Shown here: positions 17,043-56,050 of the stretch, in pieces
Layout of the letters: each line of letters starts with the position of its first letter
Position numbering within the stretch: position 1 is the stretch's first letter
The notes under the pieces: model-generated
What the model saw: the letters and a program-made list of their open reading frames with translations, nothing else
Database searches by the model: none
Told to the model about the DNA's origin: nothing
Assembly (NCBI GenBank): GCA_963708025.1
Contig: CAVPSB010000031.1
Span: 160,001-224,000, forward strand
Length of the DNA stretch: 64,000 nt
From: an uncultured Candidatus Rokubacteria bacterium
Lineage (GTDB): Bacteria; Methylomirabilota; Methylomirabilia; Rokubacteriales; DASRDR01
Direction of reading: 5' to 3'
Translations under genes and position numbers: made by a program

Positions 17043-19361
17043 TCACGCCTTCTTCTGGATCGCGCGCCAGACGCGCTCGGGCCGGATCGGCATGTCGAGG
17101 TGCCGCACGCCGAACGGCCGGAGGGCGTCGACCACCGCGTTGACGATGGCCGGCGTCGAGCCGATGGTCGCCGCCTCGCCGATGCCCTTGGCCCCCATCG
17201 GGTTGAACGGCGTCGGCGTCACCGTCTGATCGGTGACGAAGGATGGCAGGTCGTCGGCGCGCGGGACGGCGTAGTCCATGAGGGAGCCGGTGACGAGCTG
17301 GCCCTCGGGGCTGTAGACCAGCTCCTCCAGCAGGGCCTGGGCGATGCCCTGGGCGAGCCCCCCGTGCACCTGGCCGGCGACCAGCATCGGGCTGATCCGC
17401 ACGCCGCAGTCGTCAACCGAGTAGAACGCGCGCACCGTGACCTGCCCGGTCTCGCGATCCACCTCGACCACGGCCACGTGGGCCCCGAACGGATAGATGA
17501 GCTGGGCCGGCCGGAAGAAGTCGCTCGCCTCCAGGCCGTTCTCCAGGCCCTCGGGCAGGTCCGCGCCGTAGGCGCGGCCGGCGATCTCGCGCAGCGCGAG
17601 GCTGCGCGCCGGCACCCCCTTGACCTGGTAGCGGCCGTCCGCCAGCGTCACGTCCTCGAAGGCGGCCTCCAGCATGTGGGCCGCGACCCGGCGGGCTTTC
17701 TCCTGCACCTTGTGCGTGGCGCCTAGCATGGCGGAGCCCCCCACGGCCAGGCTCCGGCTCCCGCCGGTGCCGTTCCCCATCGGCGTGTTGGCGGTGTCGC
17801 CGTGCCGGACCACGACCTGGTCGAAGTCCACCCCGAGGTGGTCGGCGATGATCTGGGCGAAGGTGGTCTCGTGCCCCTGGCCGTGGGGCGAGGTGCCGGT
17901 GAACGCGGTGACGGTGCCGGTCGGCTCCACCCGCACCACCGCGCTCTCGAACGGGCCGAAGCCGCACATCTCGACGTAGCACGCCAGCCCGACGCCGAGG
18001 AGCTTCCGGTCGCCCTTCTGCACGCGCTCCTTCTGCTCGGCGCGGAGCTTCGCATAGCCGGAGATCTCCAGCGCCTTCGTCAGCGCCCGGTCGTACTCGC
18101 CGCTGTCGTAGCGCTGGCCGGTCGGCGTCATGTACGGGAAGGCTTCAGGCGGGATGAAGTTCTTCCGCCGCACCGCCTCGGGGGCCAGGCCCAGCTCGGC
18201 CGCCACCAGGTCGACGAGGCGCTCCAGGTAGTAGGCGGCCTCCGGCCGTCCGGCGCCGCGGTAAGCGGCGACCGGGGTCGTGTTGGTGAACACGCAGGTG
18301 ACCTTCAGGTCGACGTTGGGGACCTTGTAGACGCCGACGCCCATCATGAGCGTGAGGTCCGGGATGAAGGTGAAGATCGGGTAGGCGCCGACGTTGGCGA
18401 CCACCCGCATGCGGAACGCGGTGATGGTCCCGTCGGCCTCGACCGCCGCCTCCATGTCGGTGACGTGGTCCCGCCCGTGGGTGGTGGCGAGCATGTGCTC
18501 GAGCCGGGTCTCGCCCCAGCGGACCGGAATCCGGTAGCGGTGGGCGATGGCCGCCAGCACGGCGTCCTCGGGATAGAGGCCGAACTTCACGCCGAAGCCG
18601 CCGCCCACCTCGGGGGCGATGACCCGGACCATGTTCTCGGGCAGGCCGAGCGCGGTCGCGATGTCCTTCCGCTGGATGTGGGGCGCCTGGGTGGTCGTCC
18701 AGACGACGAGGCCGTCCGTCGCCCGGTCGGGCGCCGCCAGCGTGGCCCGGGGCTCCAGCGGCACGCCGCACAGCCGCTGGTTGACCATCCGCTGCTTGAC
18801 CACGCGGTGGGCGCGGCCGAACGCCGCGTCGGCATCGCCGGCCGTGATCTGGTTCTCGTGCTCGACGTTCCGGGGGGCGTCGGCGAAGAGCTGGGGCGCG
18901 CCGTCGGCCATGGCCTGGAACGGATCGACGACGGCGGCCAGGGGCTCCCAGTCCACCTGGACCTCGGCGGCGGCGTTGACGGCCAGGGCCTCGGAGGTGG
19001 CCACCACCGCGGCCACCGCCTCGCCCACGTGCCGCACGAGGTCCACCGACAGCGCATGGTGCTGCCGGCCGGGGGCGCCGCTGCTGGCCCCCCCCTCCGC
19101 CGAGACCGAGGCGAGCGGGACCGGGGCCACGCGACCGGCCAGGTCCCGACCGGTCAGCACCGCGAAGACGCCCGGCCGCTTCGCCGCCGCCGAGGTGTCG
19201 ATGCTCCGGATCCGGGCGTGCGCGTGCGGACTTCGGACGAAGGTGACGAAGTGCATCCCCGGCAGCGTGATGTCGGTCGTGTAGGTCGAAGCACCCGTGA
19301 TCAGCCGCGGGTCCTCCTTCCGCTTGACCTCGGCGCCCATGAGCTTGAGCGGACCAGGCAT
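17043..19361 (-). CDS. Xanthine dehydrogenase family Mo-binding subunit (CoxL form II-like)
   Basis: VGGGFG, AYRGAGR, HGQGHET, AKGIGE. Confidence 0.93.
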   Translation of the reverse strand: MPGPLKLMGAEVKRKEDPRLITGASTYTTDITLPGMHFVTFVRSPHAHARIRSIDTSAAAKRPGVFAVLTGRDLAGRVAPVPLASVSAEGGASSGAPGRQHHALSVDLVRHVGEAVAAVVATSEALAVNAAAEVQVDWEPLAAVVDPFQAMADGAPQLFADAPRNVEHENQITAGDADAAFGRAHRVVKQRMVNQRLCGVPLEPRATLAAPDRATDGLVVWTTTQAPHIQRKDIATALGLPENMVRVIAPEVGGGFGVKFGLYPEDAVLAAIAHRYRIPVRWGETRLEHMLATTHGRDHVTDMEAAVEADGTITAFRMRVVANVGAYPIFTFIPDLTLMMGVGVYKVPNVDLKVTCVFTNTTPVAAYRGAGRPEAAYYLERLVDLVAAELGLAPEAVRRKNFIPPEAFPYMTPTGQRYDSGEYDRALTKALEISGYAKLRAEQKERVQKGDRKLLGVGLACYVEMCGFGPFESAVVRVEPTGTVTAFTGTSPHGQGHETTFAQIIADHLGVDFDQVVVRHGDTANTPMGNGTGGSRSLAVGGSAMLGATHKVQEKARRVAAHMLEAAFEDVTLADGRYQVKGVPARSLALREIAGRAYGADLPEGLENGLEASDFFRPAQLIYPFGAHVAVVEVDRETGQVTVRAFYSVDDCGVRISPMLVAGQVHGGLAQGIAQALLEELVYSPEGQLVTGSLMDYAVPRADDLPSFVTDQTVTPTPFNPMGAKGIGEAATIGSTPAIVNAVVDALRPFGVRHLDMPIRPERVWRAIQKKA

Positions 19362-19376
19362 ACCCGAGTTCTCCTT

Positions 19377-19416
19377 CCGTCAGTGGCCGTCAGTGGCCGT
19401 CAGTGGCCGTCAGTAG
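19377..19416. repeat. 10-bp tandem repeat (CCGTCAGTGG)x3 + CCGTCAGTAG
   Basis: Directly visible; abuts the AAGGAG RBS of the CoxL-like gene. Confidence 0.9.
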
Positions 19417-19755
19417 CCTTCGGTTGCGGGTGGTGGGGCAGGGGCCCCCGTCCCAAGGTAGAACAAACTGGCGAAACGTCAATGCGTCCCCCGGCCCGGC
19501 CACCAGGGACCGCCGTGCCGCCGGAGCGAAGGGGCTCGGCGAGGCGCCCCGCCGCATCGCCGTCGGCGCTGGCCGCATCTTCGCGGCTTCGCGGCCGACC
19601 CTGCCCCGGCCGGGGCTCGGGATCCTCGCGGGGGGGCGGCGGAGGAACTTGCCCGTGGCGCCAGCGTGACGCGGGCCCTCCGCGCGGTCGAGCCTCGCGG
19701 ACCGACGGGGGTACCGGCCCGAAGCGTGTCCGCGTCCGTGGCCGCCCCCGTATCG

Positions 19756-19854
19756 ATCCGTGAGCACGGCGCGCCGCCGCCCGCCAGCCTCCGCGGCCTT
19801 GCCCGGGTCCGCTGTGTCGACTGCGCGTTCGAGCGGCTGGTGCCCTTCTCGTGT
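19756..19854 (+). mobile_element. IS91-family transposase zinc-binding domain relic
   Basis: GLARVRCVDCAFERLVPFSC matches the IS91 N-terminal GFARVRCxxCxxERLVxFSC pattern; remainder absent. Confidence 0.7.
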
Positions 19855-20006
19855 TGTCCGGAGCTGAATACTATCTGGAGCTTCTGCTCCGGAGGTCCGT
19901 AGGAGCACCGCCTGGTCAGCCCGCTCGGGCGCTGGCAGGAGCCGGGTTTCTGGAGATAGTTTCTCCCCGGGGGCACGCGATGGTGGCGGCCCCAGGGAGG
20001 AAGCGC

Positions 20007-20172
20007 ATGCCTGTCTGCTCCCCGATTCCAGTTCTCGGGCTGTCGGCCGTCCAGTCGCGAGCCTTCCGGATCCTCGTCGGCGCGTACGAACGGAGACTCG
20101 TCCGGACCGGGTACCACCCCACGGTCGTCCGGCTTCATCTCCACTCCATCGCGCACCTCGGCGTGTGGTTTC
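20007..20172 (+). pseudogene. Tyrosine-recombinase (RIT-type) N-terminal relic
   Basis: GGGAGG RBS; AYERRLVRTGYHPTVVRLHLHSIAHLGVWF resembles RIT integrase N-termini; no catalytic domain follows. Confidence 0.5.
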
Positions 20173-20403
20173 CTCCGCACCGCCACCGTTGTCGGCGCCG
20201 GCTGACGTTACGTCCCCCCGGGGAGACCCGGGTCGAGAAAGTTGACTTAGCCCCTCTGTGAGCGCTCAACAGATTGTCCGCCGGGATGATACGGCTGATG
20301 GGCAGGCCCGCGAACTGGGGGCGGAGACGGAAAGGTCGCCAGCCACCCGCTTCATGGCCACCTCCGGGAACAGCCGGGAGCTACGCTGGGGGGCGGCGAC
20401 AGG

Positions 20404-21450
20404 TCAACCGGCCCGGACGGGTGGCTCGGACGCGCGCGCTACTGGGACTCGAGACGCTTCGGGAGGAGCAGTGGCGGCTCCCCGGTGCCCGCGCGTGGCG
20501 GCCCACCGCTCGCGATAGCCCCGGATCACGCCGCGGCAGAATCGCAGCGTCATGTACGCGTCGTACCCGTGCTGCCCGCCCAGTCGCGCCACGATCCAGC
20601 GAAGGGCGGCGATCCCGGCGACCCAGGACAGCCGCAATGGCAGACGCGAGACATGATCCTGGTGGCAAAAGGCTCTCAGCCGCGGCTCTCGCTCGAGGCG
20701 AGGATGGATCCTCCCCGTGAGGATTCCGTAGACGGCCTGCGCCTCGAAGTTGTCGGCGATGTGTTTCAGGCTGCACTTGCGGGCCGGCACGAAGTGCCGC
20801 ACGAACGCGCCGGGGAGATACCACGGCTGCATCCCCCGCCGGCGAAGCCGGTCCATGAGGTCGAACGCCTCGCCGAGGCGACGCCGGCCGAGTGAGGCGT
20901 CGAGGCCGAGGCGAGTGTCGAACCCACCCGCGGCGCGCACCACGTCGGCAGGACAGGCCCAGTTGGCGGGCGCCAAGCGCTCACGGGTCGTCAGGATCCG
21001 GGCGGGCGGGCCCCAGTCGATCCCCGTCACCGAGAGCCCGGCGAAGGGGAGAAGCTCTTCCTCAGGCCTGGCGGTCTCGTACTCGGAGCCTAGCGGGCCG
21101 CCGAAGTAGAACCCGCGGGGCCGCTCCCGGTGCGCCGCGACGTACGTCGCGATCCACCCCTCGCACGGCGTCACGTCGTCGTCGGTGAAAACGAGCAGAC
21201 GGCCACGGGCGGCCGCCAGCCCTGCGTTTCGAGCATGGCTCAGGCCCTGCCTCGGTTCCTTGACGTATACCAGCGGTACCTTGCGCTTGAACTGCTGCGC
21301 CACTTCAGGAGTGTCGTCGGTGCAGTTGTTGTCGACCAGGACCAACTCCCATTCGAGGTCGCCGGCAACGACACACCGTGAAATCGCGTCGAGGGTGAGG
21401 GCAAGGCGGGCTGCGTTATTCCATGTGGAAATCATCACCGACACGTCCAT
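20404..21450 (-). CDS. Glycosyltransferase family 2
   Basis: VSVMISTWN, LVDNNCTD, GLSHARN, FTDDD; GGAGG RBS. Confidence 0.92.
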   Translation of the reverse strand: MDVSVMISTWNNAARLALTLDAISRCVVAGDLEWELVLVDNNCTDDTPEVAQQFKRKVPLVYVKEPRQGLSHARNAGLAAARGRLLVFTDDDVTPCEGWIATYVAAHRERPRGFYFGGPLGSEYETARPEEELLPFAGLSVTGIDWGPPARILTTRERLAPANWACPADVVRAAGGFDTRLGLDASLGRRRLGEAFDLMDRLRRRGMQPWYLPGAFVRHFVPARKCSLKHIADNFEAQAVYGILTGRIHPRLEREPRLRAFCHQDHVSRLPLRLSWVAGIAALRWIVARLGGQHGYDAYMTLRFCRGVIRGYRERWAATRGHRGAATAPPEASRVPVARASEPPVRAG

Positions 21451-21929
21451 GTCACACCTCCCGACCGCGTCTCACCTTGACCGCGTTCGCCTCGCCTGCC
21501 TGCGGGACGCCCGACCCGCCTTCCCATCGCTTGCGGGCGAAGAGCGCCGGCGCTTCGGCATCGAGCCCTCGGAAGGACTGCCCGCTCATCTCGAGCCTCG
21601 TGGCGGTACGGTCGGCTCCGTCCCTCCTACCGCGAGTGCCACGGAGGGGTTGCGGCAAGTTCGCGCTCGTGCAGACAGCAAACCTCGTGCCGGAGCGGAT
21701 CTTATTGAGAAAGCGTTGGTGCGGCCCGATGATCCCCGGTGGCACCATCGCCCGGTATGCAGGGCGGCGGCTTATCATTGACAGTTCCCTGCACAACCTG
21801 AGGCACGGGCCCCGACGCCGGGCGAAGCGCGTGGGAACTCGAAACGCACCCTTCCCCGGCGCCGACGACCCACGCGCCCCCGGATAGATTGCTCGAGTGC
21901 CGAGGGATCCGGGGACGCGCCGCGAGCGA

Positions 21930-23120
21930 TCAGCCCTGCTCGCCCCCTCGTGCGGCGTGGCTTTCCTCGGCGGGTCGCCGGAGGGCGCCGGATTCGCCCG
22001 CGGTGCGCGTCTCGCTGCGCTCGTGCCGGACCGTGCCCGCGGCGGCCAGGGCGAGTTCCGGCCTCGCTGCCGCCGCCTCGCTTCTTCGGGTCAGGCGCCG
22101 GGGCAGTGCGCTCGAGACCGAGCAGTGAAGCGCGCCCAGCGAACGGGCAGTGCGACGCAGCATCTCGAGATACACGAAGTACGCATCCTCGCGATTACCG
22201 GACTGACCGTTTCGAGCGAGACTCGCCGATGCCCAGCGCCAGAACCATCTGATCAACGCGGTGAGCTCATCGCGCGGGGCATAGTTGCCGAGTTGCTGCG
22301 CCCCGTATCCCCAGCCGAATTGTTGCTTGAGCATTCGGCACACCGTGTCGCGATGACGGTGGAACACGAGCGCCGCCCGGCTGTACCGCATCCGAAGACC
22401 GGCGGCGAAAAAGCGGCGGCTGAACTCCTGATCCTGGCCGGTGAGAAACCGCGGGTCGAACAGGCCAATCGCCGCGAACGCCGATCGGCGGAAGGCCACA
22501 TTGGCCGTCACGGCAAACGGTCGGGCGGAATTCAGGGCGGCCAGTTGCCACAAGGGCCGGCGTCTCGCCGCATAGCGCTCTACCGCAGTCCGTGGCGGAT
22601 ACGCCACGATCTCTCCCGCGACCCCCGACACCTCGGGGATCCCGAACTCGGCGGCGAGGGTGCGCAACCAGCCGACGGTCACCACGCAATCGGCGTCTGT
22701 GAATGCCAGGATGTCCCCTCGGCTGGCTTCGATGCCTCGATTGCGGGCCCGCGAGGGGCCGCGCCGGAGCTCCAGGAGATAGGTTACCGGGTAACTCCGA
22801 ATGATCTGTGGGGTCCGATCGGTGGACCCATTGTCTACCACGATGATCTCGCGGGAGGCAGTCGGGAAGTCGGCATTCAGAATCGACTGAATGCAATCTC
22901 CGATCGTGCGCTCACCATTTCGAACGGGGACGACCACGGAGACCACAGGCGCTCGACGGCGAGTGACGGAGGAGCGATCCGTGCGGGCTTCGCGTTCGGG
23001 TTCCGACTCCAAGCGCGCGTCCCTCGCCACCGTCCCGGTCGCGTTCGTCTCAGGAGCCTCGGTCCGGGAGGGGGTCGTCGGCTCCTTCACGTCGGGAGCG
23101 GAAGACGTCGCAATATGGGC
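21930..23120 (-). CDS. Glycosyltransferase family 2 (start uncertain)
   Basis: VSVVVPVRN, VVDNGSTD, ARNRG, FTDADC, ANVAFRR, GQDQEF. Confidence 0.88.
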   Translation of the reverse strand, partial: AHIATSSAPDVKEPTTPSRTEAPETNATGTVARDARLESEPEREARTDRSSVTRRRAPVVSVVVPVRNGERTIGDCIQSILNADFPTASREIIVVDNGSTDRTPQIIRSYPVTYLLELRRGPSRARNRGIEASRGDILAFTDADCVVTVGWLRTLAAEFGIPEVSGVAGEIVAYPPRTAVERYAARRRPLWQLAALNSARPFAVTANVAFRRSAFAAIGLFDPRFLTGQDQEFSRRFFAAGLRMRYSRAALVFHRHRDTVCRMLKQQFGWGYGAQQLGNYAPRDELTALIRWFWRWASASLARNGQSGNREDAYFVYLEMLRRTARSLGALHCSVSSALPRRLTRRSEAAAARPELALAAAGTVRHERSETRTAGESGALRRPAEESHAARGGEQG

Positions 23121-23204
23121 CAGTCCCACTCCGCCGCCCTTTCGGCACCTTCGTCCCGGTAGATGTCGGAACGCGGGGCTCCGAAGAGTCCAGGTAGTGC
23201 CGCG

Positions 23205-23303
23205 AGCGTAGGGCAAGCGCGTCAATCCTGTCAATGCGCAGGAGTTTTCACATCTCGGCAAAGTTTCTGCTTATTGACACTCCGGATCGTGTCGACCTAA
23301 GCT
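23205..23303. promoter_or_regulatory. Divergent sigma70-type promoters
   Basis: Plus TTGACA(23274)-N18-TAAGCT; minus TTGACA(23234)-N18-TACGCT, in an AT-richer intergenic stretch. Confidence 0.5.
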
Positions 23304-23343
23304 CCGCCCAAGACGCGGTTGCCGCTCTCGCGCCGGACCAGAC

Positions 23344-24624
23344 ATGTCGAGCGTAGTAGCGAGTCCGAAATCTTCTCAGCGTGCGCCGAGCTCACCGCCC
23401 GCCGAGACCCCGGCCCGTCGACAGCCGTCGCCATCCCGGGCGATGACCCGTCGGTTGCTGCTGGCCGCCATCGCCCCCGACCCCACCGCATTGGCGGCGA
23501 TCGGCGCCGTCGCGGGAGAACGGTTGGACTGGGATTGGCTTCTCGAGCGCGCCCGGGCCCACAAGGTGGCGGCACTGCTGGCCGCGCGCGTCGTCGAGCA
23601 GGCGTGGGCCGTTTCTTTGCCGGCAGGGGTCCGCGGTGTGCTCGACGAGATCCGCGGTCAGGCGCAACGGCGCACAGCGGGGGCGCGCCGTACGCTTCAA
23701 GAGGTGGCCCGGGCATTGACGGCCGGAGGGATTCCCTTCGTCGTCCTCAAGGGCAGCGTCCTGGCTGAGCAAGCGTACGGGGATCCCGTTCGGCGCCCCT
23801 TCTACGACGTCGATCTGTTGGTGCCGCTTCAGCGGCTCGATGACGCCGAGGCCGCGCTGATCGCGCTCGGCTACCGGTTTTACTCGCCACCGCTTAAGGC
23901 CCTCACGTTCGTACCCGCGAGCCGCCGTCCGGTTGGCCCCCCGGATGCCCGGGTCCCTGAACGCGTGGCCCGGGCGTTGTACCGAACCTATCACTACCAT
24001 TTCGTCTACCTCCCGCCGCCGGAGGACGAGCGCCTCCCCGTTGAACTGCACTGGCACGTCGCCACCCCCCGCACGTTCCCCGCTGGTCCCAGCGCGCTGT
24101 GGGCGCACGCGACGCCGACGGTCGTGGCCGAGACCAATGTGCAGGTACTCGACCTCGAGACCACCCTCGTGTATGTCGCCATGCACGCCATCAAGGACGG
24201 CGCGGCGAGGTTCCGGTTGCTCCATCTCTGCGACGTCGCATGGCTGCTGGCGCGCTTCGGCCACTCCTACCAGCCCCATCGCGTGTGGACCATCGCCACC
24301 GCCTGGCACGTTCGCCATCACTTGGCGCGCGCGCTCGAGGCGGCCCGGCATCTCTGGGCGGTCCCCGGCGTCCCCCTTCCGGCCTCGCGCGGGACCGTCG
24401 ACCGCCTGCTCCACCTGTGTTTCCGGTTGGCCGGGGACCCGTGCCTGATCGGCGCACCCAGGTCCCGCGGTGGCTTTCGCGGCTTGGCCGGCGACCTCCT
24501 GACCGAGACGCTGTGGGAACTGGCGCTGGCCCGACTTCCCCGGCGGGCGGCCCGCCGCCTCCTGGCTGCCGGCCGAGTCCGGCTCCCGCGACTCCGCGCC
24601 ACTTCCTCATCCGCTGAGCCGTGA
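23344..24624 (+). CDS. Nucleotidyltransferase family protein (NTP_transf_5-like)
   Basis: VVLKGSVL, RPFYDVDLLV, VELHW, LLHLCDV. Confidence 0.85.
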   Translation: MSSVVASPKSSQRAPSSPPAETPARRQPSPSRAMTRRLLLAAIAPDPTALAAIGAVAGERLDWDWLLERARAHKVAALLAARVVEQAWAVSLPAGVRGVLDEIRGQAQRRTAGARRTLQEVARALTAGGIPFVVLKGSVLAEQAYGDPVRRPFYDVDLLVPLQRLDDAEAALIALGYRFYSPPLKALTFVPASRRPVGPPDARVPERVARALYRTYHYHFVYLPPPEDERLPVELHWHVATPRTFPAGPSALWAHATPTVVAETNVQVLDLETTLVYVAMHAIKDGAARFRLLHLCDVAWLLARFGHSYQPHRVWTIATAWHVRHHLARALEAARHLWAVPGVPLPASRGTVDRLLHLCFRLAGDPCLIGAPRSRGGFRGLAGDLLTETLWELALARLPRRAARRLLAAGRVRLPRLRATSSSAEP

Positions 24625-25533
24625 TCAGCGCCCTGAACCCAGCAGGACCGGAGCGGGAGCTGTCCGAGCTCATCAAGAGGGTCGGCTCGCGTCTCGTCGA
24701 AGCCAAGCGCTTGACCCGGTGGGTCTCGCCTCAGCACCGACGTGCCTCCTGGCTCCTGCGCTTTGCCGACGGCCGGGCGTTCAAAGGTCGGCGGCTCGCC
24801 TCGGCCGCCGGTGCGCGGCGGGTGGAGGCGCTGCTGGCGTCTCTGGGCGAGCGTCACTTCCCGCGCCTGCTCGCGCGTCACGGCCCGACCCTGCTCCTGG
24901 AGTGGGTCGACGGCCGGTCGCTCCTCGACACCGAGTGGAAGCCGCTGGTACTGACTCGCTGCGGGGCATTGCACGGCTGGATCCACACGCGCCCGGTACC
25001 GGACGGGATGGCCCTCCGGTGCCGACGGCCGAGATGGGGAAAGCGGCTCGAGCGCGGACTGGCGATCCTGGTCGGACGCGGCGTGCTCGGTGAGCGTGAG
25101 GCAGCGGCGCTGGGCAGTGCCGCCAGCGCCGCCGCCCACGGTCGCCCACGGCATCGTCCACCGGGATCTCTGCGCCGACAACCTGGTGGTCCGCGCTTCC
25201 GGGAAGCTATGCCCGGTCAACAACGAGACATTGGCCGTCAACGCTTACGCGTACGACCTGGGGCGGACGTGGTATCGCTGGCCGATGCGCCCGGACCAGC
25301 GGGCGGCCTACTTCGAGGGATATCGTCGCTACCGCAGCCCCGCGGATTTCTGGGCTCACTCCCGCTATTGGACCACCCTGGTCCTCGTCGAGTCCGCGGG
25401 GTGGCACCTCCGTCTCGGCACGGCCGGCGCCGCCGTGCCCCTCCGGCGACTGCACGAACTGCTGCGCGACGAACTCGCCGAGCCGCCCGGCGCCGCCTCC
25501 GGCGCTCTCGGCGAACGGTCCCTCGCCCGATGA
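24621..25533 (+). CDS. APH/choline-kinase-like phosphotransferase, frameshifted near 25135
   Basis: N-half (FKGRR, LLLEWVDG) in ORF 24621; C-half (VHRDLCADN, VNNE, YDLGRTWYRW) in ORF 25090..25533. Confidence 0.78.
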
Positions 25534-26657
25534 GCGACCGCCTGATGAGCTTCCGCTACAACGGCCTCACCGCACGAGTCTCCAGTGCCGACCCGCGGGA
25601 TCTCGTCTGGCTTCGGGAATTTCTGGCGCCGGCATTCGAGGAGGTTCGCACCAGCGACGCCGACTGCACGGTGACACTGACCATCGATACCCGTCGCTAT
25701 ATGGAGTTCGTGCGAGCCGGGCCCCAATCCGATGGCGGGCAGCTCGCGTGCTTCGCGTTGGACGGGAGTGTGGTGCGGCTCCCCCTCTGGACCGCCGGCC
25801 CCAGTACCCGCGTGCTCCGAGACGATCCACTGCGCGTTTTCTACATCCTCGATCCGGCCCGCACCGAAGTGTGCGTGCTCTCACCACGACACAACCGAAA
25901 GGCCCGGATGGCGCTGATGCGGGTGGTTCGCGAATTTGCCATGACGCATTCCTGGAAGAGCGGCGGCCTCCTCGTCCATGGAGCCGCCCTGGCGGTGGAC
26001 GGGAAGGCCGTCGTGTTGGCGGGCCCCAAGAAGGCGGGGAAGACGTCGCTGCTAACCCATCTGTTACGTTCTCGGGCGGCCACCTTCGTCGCGAACGACC
26101 GCACGCTGGTCACGCTCACCGGGCATGGGCCTGCCGTACGGGGGATGCCGACCATTGTGACGCTGCGCCCGCGCATGCTGAAGATCTTTCCGGGTCTCCG
26201 CGCGACCCTGGAGCGGCGTGGCTACCATCATTCCCTGACACTGGACGAGGCCAGGGGAGGAGAGAGCCCGCCGGCGCCACGGCCGCCTGACGCCGGCGTC
26301 GGGCTCACCGCCAGCCAGTTCTGCGAAGTCCTTGGGGCCGGACTCAGCCCGCAGGCCGGTGCCGCGGCCCTCGTCCTGCCCCGCGTGACGGGCGAACCAG
26401 GCTCAATACGCCTGGAGCCGCTCTCAGCCGACATCGCGGCCGTCCGGCTGGCTGACTCCCTCGTCGGCGGTCGCCGGTCGGGCAGCACGTCAAGCGTCTT
26501 CGACGTCGCCCCCGGCCGCTCACCCACCGACCCCACCGCCCTCGAACGGCTCTGCCGCGACTTCACATCTAGGGTGCGTTGCTTCCAATGCGACCTGGGA
26601 CGCGACGCGTATCAGAGCGCGTCGGCCGAGAGCTTTCTGGAGGGCGTGCTGAGATGA
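25530..26657 (+). CDS. HprK-like P-loop kinase
   Basis: LVHGAAL, LAGPKKAGKTS Walker A, FVANDR; ATGA overlap with upstream gene. Confidence 0.8.
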   Translation: MSDRLMSFRYNGLTARVSSADPRDLVWLREFLAPAFEEVRTSDADCTVTLTIDTRRYMEFVRAGPQSDGGQLACFALDGSVVRLPLWTAGPSTRVLRDDPLRVFYILDPARTEVCVLSPRHNRKARMALMRVVREFAMTHSWKSGGLLVHGAALAVDGKAVVLAGPKKAGKTSLLTHLLRSRAATFVANDRTLVTLTGHGPAVRGMPTIVTLRPRMLKIFPGLRATLERRGYHHSLTLDEARGGESPPAPRPPDAGVGLTASQFCEVLGAGLSPQAGAAALVLPRVTGEPGSIRLEPLSADIAAVRLADSLVGGRRSGSTSSVFDVAPGRSPTDPTALERLCRDFTSRVRCFQCDLGRDAYQSASAESFLEGVLR

Positions 26658-26824
26658 GTGTGAACAGACGTGCCGAACGTGAGTAATGAATTGTAGCGAC
26701 CCCGGTCCCAGCTCGGCCGCGCCGTTCTGGCAGGTCAACGATGCCTGGCGCCGTGCCCGAATGCGACCCCGCGTGCGGAGAGACGAGCGCGCCCTGCCCA
26801 CGAGGCGGTCGTCCGCGTCACCAC

Positions 26825-27770
26825 ATGCTTAGCGTGGTCGTCTGCACGTTCAACCGACCGGAGAAGCTCCGCCGTTGCCTGGGCGCGCTCGTCGATGCCT
26901 GCGACGGGGCCACGTCAGTCGCCGAGCTCGTCGTGGTCAACAACTCTCCCTGCGAGGCCACGCGGCTGGTCGTTCAACGACGTCGCGCGGCGTTGTTCGT
27001 TCGCGGTGCGGTATGTCGCGGAAGGCCGGCGAGGGCTCTCCCATGCTCGAAACACCGGCGTGACTCACGCGGCATTTCCGATCATCGCGTTCACCGATGA
27101 CGACTGTGTTCCGGCGCGCGATTGGATGGCCTCCATCGTGGCCGAGTTCACCGCGAACGAGTCGCTGGCGCTCCTCGGAGGCCGCGTGGAGCCTCTGGAT
27201 GCCTCGGATGAAGGACTTGGCGTTCGCCGCGTCGCCCAACGGACTCGCATCGCTTCCTACGGCCTCTTGAACGAATGCATGATCGGGTGCAATTTCGCCA
27301 TTCGACGTACCGCATTCGATGCCGTCGGCCCGTTCGATGTGCGCCTCGGGAGAGGTACATCGATCGACTCCGGCGAGGACAGGGATTACTTCTACCGTAG
27401 TCTGAAGCGAGAACTCGAGATCGTGTGTTCACCGCGGACACTGGTCTATCACGGGCACGGTAGGCAGAGCCCGAGCGAGATCCAGCGCTGCCGGGACACC
27501 TATGCCACGGGCCGCGGTGCGTTCTACTGCAAGCACATCATGGCCGGGGACCGTGTCATCCTGAAGCGCGCCCTGTCCGAGCTTGCCCATCTTGCCGCCG
27601 CGACCTCGGGGACACGTGCCAGCCGCACAGCCCGCCCCCTCCGAGTGCTCCGTCGCCTCGTCCGAGGCGCACTGTACCTGGTCGCCATGGGCGCGGCCGT
27701 GCCGGTGAGCGCACGCCTGGCCCACGCGCATCCCGGCGGCGCGCATCGGCCGGGGGAGCTGTCCTCATGA
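26825..27770 (+). CDS. Glycosyltransferase family 2, frameshifted near 26975
   Basis: LSVVVCTFNR...VVVNNS in one frame; GLSHARNTG, FTDDDC, GCNFAIRR, SGEDRD in another. Confidence 0.85.
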
Positions 27771-30648: not shown

Positions 30649-31028
30649 CACTCGCGCCCGGCTGGAACATCTCTGCCGGTATCACTCCGCCCCCCACTGG
30701 TCGAGGACCGGGTCCGGCTCCGGACGGATATACATGACACCCGGCAGCGGCCGCCGCGTGTCGCCGTCGCCACCGACGGGCGGAGACGGAGTCTCGCTGG
30801 GTCCGACGTGATCGCGACGGCGCATTGTGTTGACTACCCCCAGGCCCCCGGAGCGGGGGACACGGCGCTGAAGTGGGCGTGTGCGCCGCCTACGTTCCGT
30901 TCCTGCCTGCGTTCCTTGCGAGGGCCTGGCCTGAGACTGATGGTCGTCTTCGGGCAGGTGAACGGGGACGTCTTGCCGGCTCCGGGTGGACCTTTCGGCG
31001 TCTCGATGAGATAGTGGGAATCGGAGCC

Positions 31029-32678: not shown

Positions 32679-32699
32679 GGCAAGGCGAGGGGAGTGTGA

Positions 32700-32726
32700 T
32701 GTCGATTCCGGGCTCTGCCGAACGAC
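32700..32726 (+). promoter_or_regulatory. ECF42-type promoter
   Basis: TGTCGA-N17-CGAC upstream of the SRPBCC gene. Confidence 0.6.
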
Positions 32727-32815
32727 TAACTGGCGTGCACAGCCGTTGGCGGGAGGGCCTGGGGCCCCTTCGAGGGTTCCCCTATCCAGGGACCGAAGAC
32801 GCGAGGAGCGGAGCC

Positions 32816-33391: not shown

Positions 33392-33495
33392 CTGCCAGGC
33401 GGCACCGGCGACGCCTCGGGGCTCTCGACCCGGCCGCGCCGGGGTTGGCACCGAGAACCTCCGGGACGCCCGTGCCGCCGTCTGACTCGCGATCT

Positions 33496-33927: not shown

Positions 33928-34085
33928 GATCGGAAGGTCTCCTTTTTCAGGCCTTCGCCACAAAGGCCGCGAGGCGTTCCAGACTTTGTGACCAGCCCGC
34001 TCCCATCCCCTCGAGATACGGGGCGGCCTCGGCGGTCGCTTTGACGACGCGGGCTTGCAACGTGACAGCAGGGCTTACGTGACCC

Positions 34086-38390: not shown

Positions 38391-38539
38391 CGCTGAATGA
38401 CCTTCGTCCGCCCGCAGCAGCACCGACTGCCGGATGGTGAGGCCGAGGGTCTTGGCGGGATCGAGGTGCCGATGGTTTGATCGTCCACGTGGCCGAGGTC
38501 CCGCAGTCCCTGCCGAAAGGCATCGATCAAGCTGGACAC
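38391..38539 (-). pseudogene. ABC substrate-binding (ABC_sub_bind) relic, internally deleted
   Basis: DAFRQGLRDLGHV (N-terminal motif) lies next to KTLGLTIRQSVLLRADE (C-terminal motif). Confidence 0.75.
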
Positions 38540-39988: not shown

Positions 39989-41131
39989 TCAGGACTCGCC
40001 GGGCGTCGCGGGCTGGCGGGGATCCACGAGGATCTCCACCCCGGCGCCCGGCGTCTCGTTCGGCCGGAACCGTCCCGACTCCAGCACGGCCAGGGACCGG
40101 ATGGAGGCGGCGGGCCGGCGGTCCTGGGCCCGGAAGACGATGGTCTCGGCCAGCGGGCAGTTCGGGGTGGCCACCATCAGGTGGACGGTCCAGGGCTGGA
40201 GGCCTCCCGCGTGGGGGACGACGATCACGTCGTGGGCCGAGGCGAGCGCGGCGATCTTGCGCACCTCCGAGAGACCGCCGGCCCAGGCCACGTCCGGCTG
40301 CAGCACGTCGGCGCATCCCCGGGCCAGGAGCTCCCGGAACCCCCAGCGGCCGTACTCGTGCTCGCCGGTCGCGATCTGCGTCCAGCCGATCCGGCGCCGG
40401 AGCGTGGCGTACCCGCCGTAGTCGTCGGGCGGGAGCGGCTCCTCGATCCAGCGGAGGTCGTGCTCGCGCGCCGCCCGGGCGAAGCGGAGGGTGTAGTCCA
40501 CGTCCCAGGACATGAAGCAGTCCACCATGACGTCCACGTCCCGACCGGCGGCCTGGCGGGCCGCCGCCACCGCCTCCACGTTCCGGGTCAGGCCCGCCCT
40601 CCCGTCCCACGGACCGCACGGCATCGGGACCTTCAGGCCGCTGAAGCCCGCGGCGGCGACGTCGCCCGGCTCGGGGTGGGTCGCGTAGGCGGGCACCGAG
40701 TCCCGGACCGCGCCCCCCAGGAGGCGGTAGAGGGGCTGTCCCAGCCACTTGGCGAGGAGATCCCAGAGCGCGAGGTCGATGGCCGATACCGCCATCACGG
40801 CCACCCCCTTGCGGCCGTAGGGCAGGACCGCCCGCCACATCTCTTCCCACCGGAGCTCGACGTCGCGCGGATCGGTGCCGAGCAGGAGCGGGCGGAGATG
40901 GCCCTCCACGATGACGCGGGCCACCGCGCCGCCCCGGCACTCGCCGGCCCCGATCACGCCCTCGTCGGTCAGGACGAACACGCGCAAGGCGTCCGCTCCC
41001 GGGCCACGCCAGCGCGACCGGGGGCCGCGGAAGCGCGGGAAGGCGGCCATCGGGTTGGCGATCTCCCGCTCGTCCAGCCAGGTCGCGCTCGAGTACGGCT
41101 CCACCACGCACCGGATGTCAACGATCTTCAT
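39989..41131 (-). CDS. L-rhamnonate dehydratase-like enolase superfamily enzyme
   Basis: IANPM, LPYGRKG, SAIDLALWDL, MVDCFMS, WIEEP, TGEHE, VPH. Confidence 0.85.
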   Translation of the reverse strand: MKIVDIRCVVEPYSSATWLDEREIANPMAAFPRFRGPRSRWRGPGADALRVFVLTDEGVIGAGECRGGAVARVIVEGHLRPLLLGTDPRDVELRWEEMWRAVLPYGRKGVAVMAVSAIDLALWDLLAKWLGQPLYRLLGGAVRDSVPAYATHPEPGDVAAAGFSGLKVPMPCGPWDGRAGLTRNVEAVAAARQAAGRDVDVMVDCFMSWDVDYTLRFARAAREHDLRWIEEPLPPDDYGGYATLRRRIGWTQIATGEHEYGRWGFRELLARGCADVLQPDVAWAGGLSEVRKIAALASAHDVIVVPHAGGLQPWTVHLMVATPNCPLAETIVFRAQDRRPAASIRSLAVLESGRFRPNETPGAGVEILVDPRQPATPGES

Positions 41132-41969: not shown

Positions 41970-42793
41970 GCGGCGGGCCGCTGGAGGAAGCGCCAGTAGA
42001 GCACGGCGAAGAACCCCGAGATGACCATGACCACCGTCCCCAGGGCGGCGGCGGTGTTCAGGTGGAAGAGCGTGAACCCCAGCTGGAAGGTCAGCAGGAC
42101 CAGGGTCTGGGTGGCGTCCACCGGCCCGCCTCCGGTCAGGACGTAGATCACCGTGAAGGACCGCCCGAAGACCCAGATCGTCAGGAGGAGGACCAGGATG
42201 ACCGTGATGGGCCGGAGGGCGGGCAGGACGACGTAGCGAAAGACCCGGATGGCGTTGGCGCCGTCAACCCGCGCGGCCTGGAGCTGGTCGCCGGGGATCG
42301 TCTTGAGTCCGGCCAGCAGGAAGACGGTGGCGAGGGGGAACAGCTTCCAGACCTGCACGACGATGACGGCCCCCAGCGCGAGCCCGGGATCGGTCAGCCA
42401 GCCGATCCGGCCCTGGACGAGGCCGGCGAGGGAGAAGAGGTAGGTCAGGAGCCCGTACTGGTAGTCGAGGAGCCACGACCAGATCATGGCGGCGGCCACA
42501 TAGGGCATCGCCCAGGGGACGATCACCGCCGCGCTGAGGAGGGCCTGGCCCGGGAACCGGCTGTGCAGGAGGACGGCCGTGGCCAGGCCGACGCCGTAGG
42601 TCCCGGACACGCACGCCGTGGTGAAGATCGCCGAGACGAGCAGCGAGTGGGCGAACGCCCGGTCGGTGAAGAGCTGGACGTAGTTCCGGAGGCCGGCCCA
42701 GGCGGGGCGATCGATCGTGCTGCCCTCCGCCTGGAGGCTCGTCCACACCCCGAGCCCGATGGGGACCAGGAAGACGAGCAGGATGACCGCCAC
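41966..42793 (-). CDS. Carbohydrate ABC transporter permease (MalF-like; 5' end obscured by repeat)
   Basis: GLRNY, QAARVDGA, LTGGGP. Confidence 0.9.
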   Translation of the reverse strand: MAVILLVFLVPIGLGVWTSLQAEGSTIDRPAWAGLRNYVQLFTDRAFAHSLLVSAIFTTACVSGTYGVGLATAVLLHSRFPGQALLSAAVIVPWAMPYVAAAMIWSWLLDYQYGLLTYLFSLAGLVQGRIGWLTDPGLALGAVIVVQVWKLFPLATVFLLAGLKTIPGDQLQAARVDGANAIRVFRYVVLPALRPITVILVLLLTIWVFGRSFTVIYVLTGGGPVDATQTLVLLTFQLGFTLFHLNTAAALGTVVMVISGFFAVLYWRFLQRPAA

Positions 42794-51919: not shown

Positions 51920-52501
51920 ATGCCGCCCGTGCCGCGCAGCGACGACGTCCACGAGCTGCCCCGAGACCTCCCGGTGCCGGCCGACGACGGCGCCTGCACC
52001 CATCTGCCCCGCCTGGCGCTGCCCGCGGTCGCGCTGCCCACCACCGCGGGCCGCCTCGTCAACCTCGCCGGACTCCCCGGCCGCACCGTCGTCTACGTCT
52101 ATCCACGCACCGGCCGGCCGGACCAGGACCCGCCCCCGGGCTGGAACGAGATCCCGGGCGCGCGCGGCTGCACGCCGCAGTCGTGCGCGTTCCGTGACCA
52201 CTACGCGGAGCTGACGGCGCTCGGGGCGCGGGTGTTCGGCCTCAGCACGCAGGACACGGAGTACCAGCGCGAGGCCGTCGAGCGGCTGCACCTGCCGTTC
52301 GAGCTGCTGAGCGACGACCGGCTTCGCTTCGCGCGCACGCTCAGGCTGCCCACGTTCGAGGTCGAGGGCATGACCCTGATCAAGCGGCTCACGCTGATCG
52401 TCAACGGCGGGCGCATCGCGAAGGCGTTCTACCCGGTCTTCCCGCCGGACCGGAACGCCGGCGACGTGGTCGCCTGGCTGGCGGCTCGGCCCGGGTCATA
52501 G
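51920..52501 (+). CDS. Peroxiredoxin (BCP/PrxQ-like)
   Basis: YVYPRTG, IPGARGCTPQSCAFRD, LPFELLSD, YPVFPP. Confidence 0.92.
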   Translation: MPPVPRSDDVHELPRDLPVPADDGACTHLPRLALPAVALPTTAGRLVNLAGLPGRTVVYVYPRTGRPDQDPPPGWNEIPGARGCTPQSCAFRDHYAELTALGARVFGLSTQDTEYQREAVERLHLPFELLSDDRLRFARTLRLPTFEVEGMTLIKRLTLIVNGGRIAKAFYPVFPPDRNAGDVVAWLAARPGS

Positions 52502-55257: not shown

Positions 55258-55387
55258 CGCGGGGCTGGCCCCGGCGGCCGGACCCTCGGGCGGGAAAGGG
55301 CGCCGGCCATGCCGGCAGTGTAGCATCGGGAGACTGCCGGGGCGGGATTGACCCCCCGAGCGCGCGTCGCGTACTGTCGGCACGAGA

Positions 55388-56050
55388 ATGAAGCTCCTGC
55401 GACGGATGGCGGCGCGCCTGGGGTTCGAGCCCGGGCGGCGCGCACTGCGCCGGGCGTTCGTTCAGATCTATCGGACCCGGGCCTGGCCCGACCCGGAGTC
55501 CGTGTCCGGACCGGGGTCGGGCGTGGCCCGGACGGCGCTCATCCGCGCCGACCTGCAGGCCCTGCTCCGGGAGCTCCAGGTCCGGTCGCTGCTCGACGCT
55601 GGCTGCGGCGACTTCAACTGGATGAAGGAGACCGAGCTGCCCGGGTGTCGCTACGTCGGGGTCAACGTGGTCCCGGAGCTGATCGCCCGGAATCGCGTGC
55701 GGCATGGCGGCGCCGGGCGCGAGTTTCGGACGGCCGACATCGCCCGGGACCGGCTCCCCGCGGTCAACCTGATCCTCTGCCGGGACTGCCTGGTGCACCT
55801 CTCCCTCGACGACGCGCTCCGGGCCCTGGCCAACTTCAGGCGGAGCGGATCGCGCTACCTCCTGGCGACCACGTTCGTCGAAGGGGCCGAAAACCCGGAC
55901 ATCGCGACCGGCGACTGGCGTCCGCTGAACCTGGAGCGACCACCGTTCGGGTTGCCCGCGCCGCTCCGGGCCATCGACGAGCGCGTCCCCGTCGAGCACG
56001 GCCCGTACCCCGACAAGCGACTGGCCCTGTGGCGGCTCGGCCAGTCCTGA
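55388..56050 (+). CDS. Class I SAM-dependent methyltransferase
   Basis: SVSGPGS, LLDAGCGDFNWM, LILCRDCLVHL, WRPLNL..PPF. Confidence 0.88.
   Translation: MKLLRRMAARLGFEPGRRALRRAFVQIYRTRAWPDPESVSGPGSGVARTALIRADLQALLRELQVRSLLDAGCGDFNWMKETELPGCRYVGVNVVPELIARNRVRHGGAGREFRTADIARDRLPAVNLILCRDCLVHLSLDDALRALANFRRSGSRYLLATTFVEGAENPDIATGDWRPLNLERPPFGLPAPLRAIDERVPVEHGPYPDKRLALWRLGQS

Follow-up and report, generated by a model that had tools for sequence, protein, structure and literature searches.

Results

Asparagine codons at conserved aspartate positions

The window, i.e. the whole stretch of 64,000 nucleotides that was analysed, contains 31 GTCGAC, 28 GTCAAC and 15 GTTGAC hexamers. A first-pass annotation had noted that GTCGAC recurrently appears as GTCAAC or GTTGAC, turning conserved Asp into Asn in unrelated genes, while other GTCGAC sites stay intact. 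All of the hexamers that it cited (12/12) were found in place, the effect is indeed partial, with intact sites kept alongside, and the change holds genome-wide. The genes and sites concerned are:

2406..2411, plus strand: silent GTT GAC (IPNVDGED), in frame in ORF 612-2798
17046..19361, minus strand: gene for a CoxL-like molybdopterin oxidoreductase of 772 aa (Pfam PF01315, PF02738, PF20256)
17412..17417, minus strand: in-frame GTT GAC in the CoxL-like gene, silent at Val649-Asp650; plus strand GTCAAC, the opposite-strand form of the change at 18975
18975..18980, minus strand: GTC AAC in the CoxL-like gene, Val128-Asn129 (ALAVNAAA); plus strand reads GTTGAC
24621..25533, plus strand: gene for an APH-family kinase, split over ORFs in frame 0 (from 24621) and frame 1 (25090-25533), with PF01636 on the second piece
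25216..25221, plus strand: GTC AAC in the kinase (CPVNNE), at the position of the Asp after the HRDLxxxN catalytic loop in homologues
25237..25242, plus strand: GTC AAC in the kinase (LAVNA), ambiguous
26741..27770, plus strand: third GT2 glycosyltransferase (PF00535), split over frame 2 (26741-27100) and frame 0 (26895-27770)
26936..26941, plus strand: GTC AAC in the third GT2 (VVVNNS); the window's two paralogues have LVLVDNNCTD and IIVVDNGSTD here
41117..41122, minus strand: silent GTT GAC (MKIVDIRC), in frame in ORF 39989-41131; plus strand GTCAAC
42263..42268, minus strand: silent GTT GAC (AARVDGAN), in frame in ORF 41966-42793; plus strand GTCAAC
52058..52063, plus strand: GTC AAC in a redoxin-family protein (LVNL; Pfam PF08534), variable position
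55388..56050, plus strand: gene for a class I SAM-dependent methyltransferase of 220 aa (Pfam Methyltransf_11/25) with two suspect Asn
55661..55666, plus strand: GTC AAC in the methyltransferase, Val92-Asn93 (YVGVNVV), invariant acidic position
55763..55768, plus strand: GTC AAC in the methyltransferase, Val126-Asn127 (AVNLILCRD), nearly invariant Asp
61292..61297, plus strand: silent GTT GAC (WIEVDCPA), in frame in ORF 60851-61486

In the CoxL-like gene, a per-site comparison with orthologues marked one Asn and one silent GTT-GAC as suspect; two GTC-AAC are genuine and three GTC-GAC intact. All 16 family orthologues and all 7 paralogues have Asp at the position read as Asn129, as do 107 of the 111 aligned database fragments, the closest of which are 86% identical; Asn occurs in none of these. 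Judged by this conservation, Asn129 at an invariant Asp is a probable miscalled GTCGAC. The methyltransferase presents the same picture twice: in the best 120 of 1695 homologues, the position at 55661 holds 102 D and 18 E (acidic in 120/120) and no N, and that at 55763 holds 114 D, 4 E and 2 N (acidic in 118/120), with VD at 55763 in all three closest homologues (93, 92 and 86% identical). The kinase residue in CPVNNE, which had been expected to be the metal-binding Asp, is D in 2/2 homologues (VVDNE, IVDSE), the closest kinase homologue from other assemblies being 50% identical, and VVVNNS in the third GT2 faces VDN in both paralogues of the window. Two of the cited Asn are ambiguous, as LAVNA lies at a variable position (D in one homologue, G in one), as does LVNL in the redoxin (58 D, 24 N, 16 R and 10 S among 147 homologues). 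The five silent GTT GAC sites are all in frame, in a genome where GTT makes up 2.2% of Val codons overall and 5.1% before GAC.

The kinase and the third GT2 each change reading frame within the gene, a point on which the first-pass annotation was silent. The frame change in the kinase was located in a GCC-repeat/C-run near 25125-25140. In the GT2, positions 1-47 of the PF00535 profile match one ORF and positions 54-167 the other, and an additional GTTC unit within gttgttcgttcgcgg (about 26990-27004) would account for the break.

Across the assembly, contigs reach 708 kb, and an ORF-based count over 526 conserved orthologue queries found 3 frameshifts, which lie in G-runs of 3-5 bases or next to them; long contigs and G-run frameshifts together are only suggestive of a nanopore-type assembly. 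Metagenomes from bog, cave, soil and sediment contain close strains at low depth and in short contigs. Contigs assembled from other runs show 595 differences from the window, and none of the 40 that were listed falls at a cited site. A contig of run X1 matches 29548-29856 without difference, including a GTTGAC at 29655 for which the homologues are too distant to show the expected base. Metagenome contigs scanned for exact patterns that span a site contained no match.

Genome-wide codon pairs and orthologues

We observed a raised observed/expected ratio (O/E) in this genome for both codon pairs that derive from GTC-GAC by a change at its central CG: 1.63 for GTC-AAC, against 0.95-1.38 in five relatives, and 2.15 for GTT-GAC, against 0.27-0.61. 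The count of Val-Asp to Val-Asn changes by context that had been proposed was made on 541 orthologue pairs with 181,899 aligned dicodons, where the signal is read in the frame GTC|GAC, codon phases 1 and 2 being without power. GTC-AAC of this genome faces Asp in the relative in 27/227 cases, against 73/2852 for all other NNN-AAC (Fisher p 9e-10), and the reverse direction gave 3/176. The change is thus polarised: Val-Asn faces Val-Asp 27 times against 7 the other way round, while non-Val contexts gave 83 against 115 (p 6e-5), and silent GTT-GAC occurs 19 times in this genome against once in the relatives. According to the first-pass annotation, close orthologues that also carried Asn, with no enrichment in the GTCGAC context, would have spoken against its proposal; instead, the CoxL-like orthologues carry Asp, almost all aligned methyltransferase homologues carry Asp or Glu, and the enrichment is strong.

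In the aligned dicodons, the Asp to Asn excess (about 21) is similar to the silent GTT-GAC excess (about 18), and therefore the changes are unfiltered by selection. Local identity around the Asp to Asn sites (0.754) is close to that at matched positions (0.778, p 0.51) and above that at ordinary mismatches (0.664, p 0.009), while the difference in local conservation from other mismatches between Asp and Asn is not significant (p 0.18). Neither GTC-GAT (684 against 791 expected from the relatives) nor ATC-GAC (3402 against 3746) is enriched, and the central CG of GTCGAC alone is affected. Altogether, about one in six in-frame GTCGAC sites of this metagenome-assembled genome appear as GTCAAC or GTTGAC. 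Four small contigs of the assembly, which carry ordinary metabolic genes and are probably foreign DNA, show a normal ratio (0.17-0.33), and therefore the effect belongs to the organism rather than to the k-mer.

Could a genome of 71% G+C produce such a pattern through ordinary codon-pair or dipeptide bias, with Asn arising by chance? GTT is also used more before CAC (6.5%) and CAG (3.8%), a synonymous shift from GTG to GTC before AAC in comparison to genus g5 (GTG-AAC O/E 1.16 against 1.34-1.45) makes up part of the GTC-AAC excess, and the redoxin site is variable. However, the signal is missing in the five relatives, which belong to the same family and share the G+C content, and the orthologue test, the first rank of the motif in the unbiased repeat test described below and the near-absence of Asn among aligned homologues (0/120 at 55661 and 2/120 at 55763, in the best 120 of 1695, and 0/111 at 18975) make this explanation extremely improbable.

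Near-identical repeats differ at GTCGAC

The internal repeats of the genome allow the same sequence to be compared with itself. In repeats of at least 96% identity, no other hexamer pair that differs by one substitution ranks above GTCAAC/GTCGAC (15 mismatched, 26 conserved), and the next pairs in the ranking are sub-words of the same motif, which bears out the motif specificity that the first-pass annotation had proposed. The ratio is 1.1 for GTCGAC/GTCAAC against 0.028 for all NNCGNN contexts. The share of mismatched sites is 44, 50, 43, 55 and 75% at identities of 90-93, 93-95, 95-97, 97-99 and 99-100%, calculated from few pair-sites (30 mismatched against 29 conserved, some from the same repeat families). 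This share is flat, and therefore does not grow with divergence from 0.3% to 10%. The two copies of one repeat with 99.67% identity read GTTGAC and GTCAAC, respectively, at the same site. Silent and replacement differences between copies number 5 and 4, which are few cases, and a dependence on flanking bases was looked for and none was seen.

The first-pass annotation had left open two causes, real C to T deamination at methylated cytosines or systematic miscalls at a modified base. Under the former, m5C at the inner cytosine of GTCGAC (HgiDII-type) would make the site a mutational hot spot and the lineage would truly be losing the Asp codons of Val-Asp pairs. What is seen matches exactly C to T at the CpG of the motif on one strand or the other, and m5C methyltransferases for GTCGAC are on record elsewhere (PMC6329791, PMC11033074, PMC12714287). 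The estimated conversion rate is also lower in genes, where they are conserved (about 14-17%), than in internal repeats (about 30-40%), and only 1 in-frame GT-TGA-C stop was found inside coding-looking sequence, which would fit nonsense purging. An error model predicts about 2-7 such stops, so this count mildly strains the explanation by miscalls and speaks mildly against a high error rate; the gap between the two conversion estimates likewise counts against miscalls. Nevertheless, replacement changes are about as frequent as silent ones and strike invariant catalytic or ligand residues, and the mismatch share is about 50% at 99.7% identity as it is at 90%, whereas mutation should scale with divergence. 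At such a rate unconstrained sites should also be nearly gone, but the depletion of GTCGAC is instead uniform at about 0.6 in all codon phases. Thus, of the two causes proposed, our findings favour miscalls, also considering that the sister genera turn to GTG (see below), and deamination is the less likely one; we regard it, together with the PF00145 result given below, as unlikely.

Two further candidates were discarded. RNA editing or translational recoding was ruled out by the equal frequency of the silent opposite-strand form and by DNA copies that differ from each other, and the signature of a TC-context deaminase toxin by the absence of enrichment of ATT-GAC (O/E 0.68) and CTT-GAC (0.88).

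GTCGAC avoidance in this genome and in sister genera

GTCGAC has an O/E of 0.58 in the genome (0.62, 0.63 and 0.58 by codon phase), and the depletion is nearly uniform along the large contigs. GTG-GAC is mildly raised (1.19) and is the commonest counterpart of the relatives' GTC-GAC (74/244). In two sister genera (G001 and G002), the O/E of GTCGAC is 0.34 and 0.42, that of GTG-GAC 1.97 and 1.56 and that of GTT-GAC 0.61 and 0.5; genuine avoidance there runs via GTG-GAC and not via GTT or AAC. Avoidance accounts for part of the GTCGAC depletion in our genome, and not for the Asp to Asn set.

One could argue that the whole pattern is real and selected, i.e. that exposure to a GTCGAC-cutting enzyme favours any mutation of the site, including Asp to Asn. 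The depletion in all codon phases, the raised GTG-GAC and the strong avoidance in the sister genera would all suit this. On the other hand, neither GTT-GAC nor GTC-AAC rises in G001 and G002, our genome shows no enrichment of GTC-GAT and ATC-GAC, which would be cheap escapes, Asn at an invariant Asp would not be favoured while synonymous escapes exist, and copy-to-copy differences in 99.7% identical repeats are left unexplained. Selection as the sole cause is therefore very improbable, and avoidance probably coexists with the main effect without explaining the Asp to Asn set.

Search for a modifying enzyme

The first-pass annotation had placed the responsible methyltransferase outside the window. 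It is absent from the window, and the genome search that had been suggested, done with profiles, yielded no candidate GTCGAC methyltransferase anywhere in the assembly either. The C5 methyltransferase profile PF00145 has 0 matches in this genome, which is 99.67% complete, and in 20 family genomes (control: 9/14 well-known genomes), which argues against deamination and against cytosine methylation as the specific modification. PF02086, PF07669 and PF09572 (XamI) have no match in the assembly, with PF09572 likewise at 0/14 in the control genomes; PF01555 matches a split type III Mod only, and PF02384 matches fragments only. N6/N4 methyltransferases show no clear link with GTCGAC depletion across the family, G001 having several and G002 none. 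The modifying enzyme may reside on mobile elements left out of the bin.

Given these results, a non-methyl modification at the G, for instance a phosphorothioate or a 7-deazaguanine-type base, might produce the same artefact by another chemistry. Phosphorothioation is partial, as is the effect here, the miscalled base would be the G itself, no classical methyltransferase candidate was found, and the genome has one DndB-family gene (C23:40812-41951). This gene, however, stands alone amid housekeeping genes (GreA, BipA, cyclophilin), TGT is present as a single housekeeping copy, and no published GTCGAC motif was found for phosphorothioate or 7-deazaguanine systems; DndE has no match in the assembly (control likewise 0/14 well-known genomes). 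We consider a modification of this kind quite improbable.

Discussion

We believe that the GTCAAC and GTTGAC found in place of GTCGAC probably reflect systematic errors, G to A and C to T, that a modified motif introduced into the consensus of a long-read assembly, with mild genuine site avoidance in addition. The Asp to Asn changes at conserved aspartates in many proteins would then most likely be sequencing error at a chemically modified motif. The organism's DNA would carry a base modification at the palindrome GTCGAC, and the assembly would most likely derive from native long (nanopore-type) reads. At the modified motif, reads of one strand would give A for G and those of the other strand the mirror error, T for C, and the consensus would flip wherever the miscalling strand locally dominates. 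In the frame GTC|GAC, one orientation of the error would yield a false Asp to Asn change and the other a silent GTT, and Asn at invariant Asp positions would be absent from the organism itself. Separately, the lineage genuinely avoids GTCGAC to a mild degree and uses GTG-GAC more, which fits exposure to GTCGAC-specific restriction-modification, as in the sister genera. From an effect that, among the genomes compared, is restricted to this one, we infer the sequencing platform, a modification and its type, and the mechanism behind the consensus errors. Adenine methylation or another modification fits the data equally well as cytosine methylation.

If the errors are as we suppose, a species-representative genome holds several hundred false codons: for the 5,090 confidently called genes, we estimate about 200 Asp to Asn and about 230 silent GTT codons, and further false bases are expected in other reading frames and in non-coding DNA. 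False Asn at metal- or cofactor-binding Asp would mislead active-site annotation, pseudo-enzyme calls and dN/dS, SNP and protein-structure work. On a practical matter, the error pattern would mark GTCGAC, without raw signal, as a probably modified motif in an uncultured lineage and, together with the strong avoidance in sister genera, would point to SalI/HgiDII-like restriction-modification pressure in the family. Tests that use an assembly alone (codon-pair asymmetry, orthologue polarity and repeat-copy mismatches) can flag the artefact in other long-read metagenome-assembled genomes. It is rather unlikely that the changes are in the DNA itself, through C to T hypermutation targeted to GTCGAC (by a modification or a site-directed deaminase) in an uncultured soil and bog bacterium with no recognisable cytosine-5 methyltransferase; such hypermutation would be fast enough to separate 99.7% identical copies and would spread Asp to Asn across hundreds of proteins.

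Comparison with known systems

SalI-type restriction-modification recognises GTCGAC and involves adenine methylation. Our case shares the recognition sequence, but no matching methyltransferase or endonuclease was found here; placed next to the G that is miscalled, a methylated A would match the R-A order in the published error motifs RACG and CARATG (PMC11610573). Restriction-site avoidance in general resembles our findings in the scarcity of GTCGAC in every codon phase and in the synonymous shift to GTG-GAC, both stronger in G001 and G002, but alone it yields neither an excess of GTT-GAC or Asp to Asn nor differences between near-identical repeat copies.

M.HgiDII is an m5C methyltransferase for GTCGAC, according to a table in PMC6329791, and m5C enzymes for this site have been predicted in haloarchaea (PMC11033074) and in a Burkholderia system (PMC12714287). 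Deamination hot spots of the m5C kind (Dcm-type, M.HgiDII) would likewise give C to T at the CpG cytosine inside a palindromic site, in both strand forms; in contrast, here there is no C5 methyltransferase gene, no filtering by selection and no build-up with divergence.

Our findings are closest to the methylation miscalls of nanopore R10.4.1, although a literature search found no published report of GTCGAC as a nanopore error motif, the effect here is known from the assembly alone and no cognate methyltransferase was found. PMC11610603 describes native R10.4.1 reads that show T for C and A for G where a site is modified; these errors affect a single strand and are carried over into assemblies. 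R/Y ambiguities at reverse-complement motif pairs are described in PMC11610573. What these accounts and bioRxiv 10.64898/2026.01.14.699587 report is also what we see here: confinement to a short motif, G to A and C to T as a reverse-complement pair, a consensus that flips at only some of the sites, and an effect that is specific to the organism.

GTCGAC variants in the window

The recurrent change of GTCGAC into GTCAAC or GTTGAC was confirmed, and it goes far beyond chance. The first-pass annotation had cited 12 such hexamers as a footprint of cytosine methylation. Every one of them is present at its position in the window sequence, seven reading GTC AAC (Val-Asn) and five the silent GTT GAC (Val-Asp) on the coding strand. 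The window (C31:160001-224000 of an 8.17-Mb assembly, G000, with 49 contigs and 71% G+C) holds 31 GTCGAC, 28 GTCAAC and 15 GTTGAC. The accompanying claim that Asn stands in place of a conserved Asp held strongly at four sites and is likely at one and ambiguous at two, as judged from orthologues, homologues or paralogues.

Cited Val-Asn sites and the residues found in related proteins
18975, CoxL-like protein, residue 129: D in 16 of 16 orthologues and 7 of 7 paralogues (family comparison)
25216, APH-type kinase: opposite D in 2 of 2 homologues
25237, APH-type kinase: D in one homologue and G in the other (n = 2)
GT2 glycosyltransferase, VVVNNS: VDN in its two in-window paralogues
52058, redoxin: variable position, D 58, N 24 and R 16 of 147 homologues
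Methyltransferase, residue 93: D 102 and E 18 among the best 120 of 1695 homologues
Methyltransferase, residue 127: D 114, E 4 and N 2 among the best 120 of 1695 homologues

Of 111 database fragments aligned to the CoxL-like protein, 107 also have D at residue 129 and none has N. The same gene carries two further in-frame GTC AAC, where the family state is Asn (or Ser), three intact GTC GAC and one GTT GAC. For the methyltransferase, the nearest homologues (93, 92 and 86% identical) have VD at both residues.

Two genes of the window, less than 2 kb apart and unremarked in the earlier annotation, are split between frames: the APH-type kinase (frame 0 from 24621, frame 1 over 25090-25533) and the third GT2 glycosyltransferase (frame 2 for Pfam profile positions 1-47, frame 0 for 54-167). 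The kinase breaks at a GCC-repeat/C-run near 25125-25140, and the GT2 break is compatible with one additional GTTC unit near 26990-27004. Both lie in a stretch (about 19400-39000) with a G+C content of 61-70%, compared to 70-77% on either side, which contains three GT2 glycosyltransferases, the split kinase and other envelope-type genes. Searches for homologues of the methyltransferase, kinase and CoxL-like protein and pattern scans of metagenome contigs found no near-identical sequence in other assemblies. Fourteen studies of bog, cave, soil, sediment and subsurface metagenomes contain, at low depth, sequences 95-100% identical to parts of positions 17500-27400 (share of sampled words 0.09-0.36; four runs aligned), suggesting that the organism or close strains are widespread at low abundance. 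The differences listed from aligning contigs of these runs (40 of 595) include none of the cited sites.

Polarity against orthologues

We aligned 541 orthologue pairs (181,899 dicodons; median amino-acid identity 73% and 77% in two sets). The VD-to-VN count proposed as a check came out in favour of the observation, as GTC-AAC in G000 lies opposite Asp in 27 of 227 cases (11.9%), whereas other NNN-AAC do so in 73 of 2852 (2.6%; Fisher p 9e-10). In the reverse direction, the relatives' GTC-AAC lies opposite a G000 Asp in 3 of 176 cases, and for GTG-AAC the two directions are matched (8/144 and 7/156). Val-Asn in G000 against Val-Asp in the relative was seen in 27 cases and the converse in 7, compared to 83 and 115 in non-Val contexts (p 6e-5), and the 27 sites are spread over 24 of 456 aligned ORFs. 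The silent form, GTT-GAC, occurs 19 times in the aligned dicodons of G000 and once in those of the relatives, although G000 has the smaller total of GTT codons (277 against 407). These counts imply an excess of approximately 21 Asp>Asn and 18 silent changes, about 14% of true in-frame sites; extrapolated to the gene set, this gives approximately 200 false Asn and 230 silent GTT.

Replacement and silent changes are roughly equal in frequency, i.e. there is no selection filter. Local identity around the Asp>Asn sites (0.754) is close to that at matched positions (0.778, p 0.51), exceeds that at ordinary mismatches (0.664, p 0.009) and does not differ significantly from that at other D<->N mismatches (0.720, p 0.18). 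Some Asp>Asn changes fall inside motifs conserved between both genomes, such as VVAVD>N, WDVD>NG and LYLVD>NSG, in proteins that we take to be ABC ATPase-like, aminotransferase-like and peptidase-like, respectively. The organism itself probably does not have these Asp>Asn changes.

Differences between repeat copies and contigs

Internal alignments of G000 at 90% identity or more total approximately 400 kb, small contigs that duplicate parts of C13 and C4 included. Where repeat copies are at least 95% identical, 15 pair-sites keep GTCGAC in both and 18 have GTCAAC/GTTGAC in one, a mismatch ratio of 1.1 compared to 0.028 for all NNCGNN and the highest of the contexts tested. When every single-substitution hexamer pair was scanned in an unbiased way (repeats of at least 96% identity, one count per site), GTCAAC/GTCGAC ranked first (15 mismatched, 26 conserved) and the next informative entries were sub-words of the same motif. 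Across five identity bins, from 90-93% to 99-100%, the mismatch share was 7/16, 5/10, 3/7, 12/22 and 3/4; these pair-sites come partly from the same repeat families and two were counted twice as reciprocal hits. In one 3,292-bp repeat of 99.67% identity (C16:363979 and C32:226016) one copy has GTTGAC and the other GTCAAC at the same site. A process that yields a difference of approximately 50% whether divergence is 0.3% or 10% is no clock-like mutation; a flat share is what independent miscalls in each copy would give. This independence of divergence speaks against a real deamination hot spot at GTCGAC, the other origin that had been proposed.

The ratio of variant to intact sites ranges over 0.86-2.05 on contigs of at least 50 kb, or 0.87-1.38 if only contigs of at least 145 kb are taken, and is nearly binomial per 100 kb. 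Four contigs of 8-24 kb (C1, C8, C27 and C45) have normal ratios of 0.17-0.33, compared to about 1.2 elsewhere, two- to fourfold the GTCGAC density and ordinary metabolic genes; a foreign origin is probable for these members of the G000 bin (contamination estimate 8.18%). C8 carries a LeuC/LeuD-like pair, a guess from ORF translations. Other small contigs duplicate parts of larger ones at 96.5-98.7% identity (C36, C40 and C46 for C13; C33 for C4) and look like co-binned strain variants.

Genome-wide word and codon-pair statistics

Under a maximal-order Markov model, G000 has 3825 GTCGAC where 6615 are expected (O/E 0.58) and 4476 GTCAAC/GTTGAC (O/E 1.12). The depletion is equal across the three codon phases (0.62, 0.63, 0.58), so the effect is on the DNA word and not on the codon pair. 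We compared codon pairs from 5,090 G000 genes, called by third-position G+C, with samples of 124-400 kb apiece from five family genomes (for G001, stretches L113-L120, L123 and L124; for G002, L100-L104, L111 and L112). Among the 31 genomes searched, G000 is the sole member of its genus, the others being related at family rank or further.

O/E of GTCGAC, GTC-GAC, GTG-GAC, GTT-GAC and GTC-AAC, in that order, in the source genome (G000) and five relatives
G000: 0.58; 0.67; 1.19; 2.15; 1.63
G010: 0.97; 1.49; 0.83; 0.45; 1.04
G013: 0.87; 1.16; 0.95; 0.37; 1.11
G006: 0.81; 1.03; 1.08; 0.27; 1.38
G002: 0.42; 0.43; 1.56; 0.5; 0.95
G001: 0.34; 0.20; 1.97; 0.61; 1.23

The transition signal is peculiar to G000 among the genomes compared. 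GTT-GAC and GTC-AAC are not in excess in the sampled DNA of G010, G013 and G006 (for the first two, values changed little under a slightly different gene calling). G001 and G002, from two sister genera, strongly avoid GTCGAC and escape via GTG-GAC, without an excess of either variant. The family thus contains true avoidance, which differs in appearance from the G000 pattern and suggests that restriction specific to GTCGAC has put pressure on the family.

Within G000, the codon pair GTC-GAT has an O/E of 1.26. Set against the numbers expected from relatives, neither GTC-GAT (684, 791 expected) nor ATC-GAC (3402, 3746 expected), the other GC>AT escapes from GTCGAC, is enriched, and no influence of flanking bases was seen. 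GTT makes up 2.2% of Val codons overall and 5.1% before GAC; it is also raised before CAC and CAG. Some of the raw GTC-AAC excess comes not from Asp>Asn but from a synonymous GTG>GTC shift before AAC when G000 is compared with genus g5; G000 favours GTC there (GTG-AAC O/E 1.16) and g5 favours GTG (1.34-1.45), separately from the Asp>Asn effect. Other palindromes are depleted in G000 as well (TACGTA 0.20, CAGCTG 0.35, AAGCTT 0.39, AACGTT 0.43, GAGCTC 0.59; in G010 and G013, CAGCTG 0.89 and 0.73, GAGCTC 0.98 and 0.92), and none of the five shows an excess of repeat-copy mismatches in G000.

Search for a modifying enzyme

Profile searches recognised no GTCGAC methyltransferase in G000. PF00145 (C5 methyltransferase), PF02086, PF07669 and PF09572 had no match, the PF09572 control detecting its family in 0 of 14 well-known genomes, and PF00145 was absent from all 21 family genomes searched. 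PF01555 matched a type III Mod that occupies two frames and adjoins a Res helicase, with no clear link across the family between its presence and GTCGAC depletion, and PF02384 matched only fragments, type I HsdM-like, adjoining a transposase and an HsdS remnant. All DNA methyltransferase matches in G000 (C2:143400-146500; C10:12300-13230; C18:259230-259440) are split over two or three frames; accessory regions may have truly decayed here or may contain indel errors. An orphan gene was also found:

C23:40812-41951 (L151:7813-8952, minus strand), DndB-family protein (PF14072, weak GmrSD_N)

Its neighbours have housekeeping functions (GreA, BipA/TypA, cyclophilin), and none of the genes nearby is a dnd or dpd partner. 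G000 has one TGT gene.

Cause of the changes and comparison with known systems

We consider it likely that these observations stem from GTCGAC being a modified motif at which the consensus is systematically wrong, together with mild genuine avoidance of the site. Of the two origins first proposed, miscalling is thus favoured; real deamination seems improbable, given the missing C5 methyltransferase and the lack of a selection filter. Several points count against an artefact: an in-frame GT-TGA-C stop within coding-like sequence was seen only once, the apparent rate is higher in repeats than in genes, and the cognate enzyme, the main gap of this explanation, was not found by profile searches. 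Among 526 conserved orthologue queries, 3 had a frameshift, located in or next to a G-run of 3-5 bases; this fits a polished long-read assembly but proves nothing. The finding would not surprise a specialist, and its use lies in flagging data quality and in hinting, indirectly, that the family has a modification specific to GTCGAC.

Among the entries listed, no title or abstract combined GTCGAC, nanopore and methylation. Three papers record m5C enzymes for GTCGAC (PMC6329791, PMC11033074, PMC12714287), and their GTCGAC passages do not give it as a nanopore error motif. A 2026 preprint ties A<->G errors to methylation motifs (10.64898/2026.01.14.699587). In PMC11610573, the motifs around ambiguous R/Y positions come in pairs that are reverse complements of each other, for example RACG/CGTY. 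The closest parallel is in native R10.4.1 reads, where, according to PMC11610603, C->T and G->A miscalls arise at modified sites on one strand only, get into assemblies and disappear with amplified DNA.
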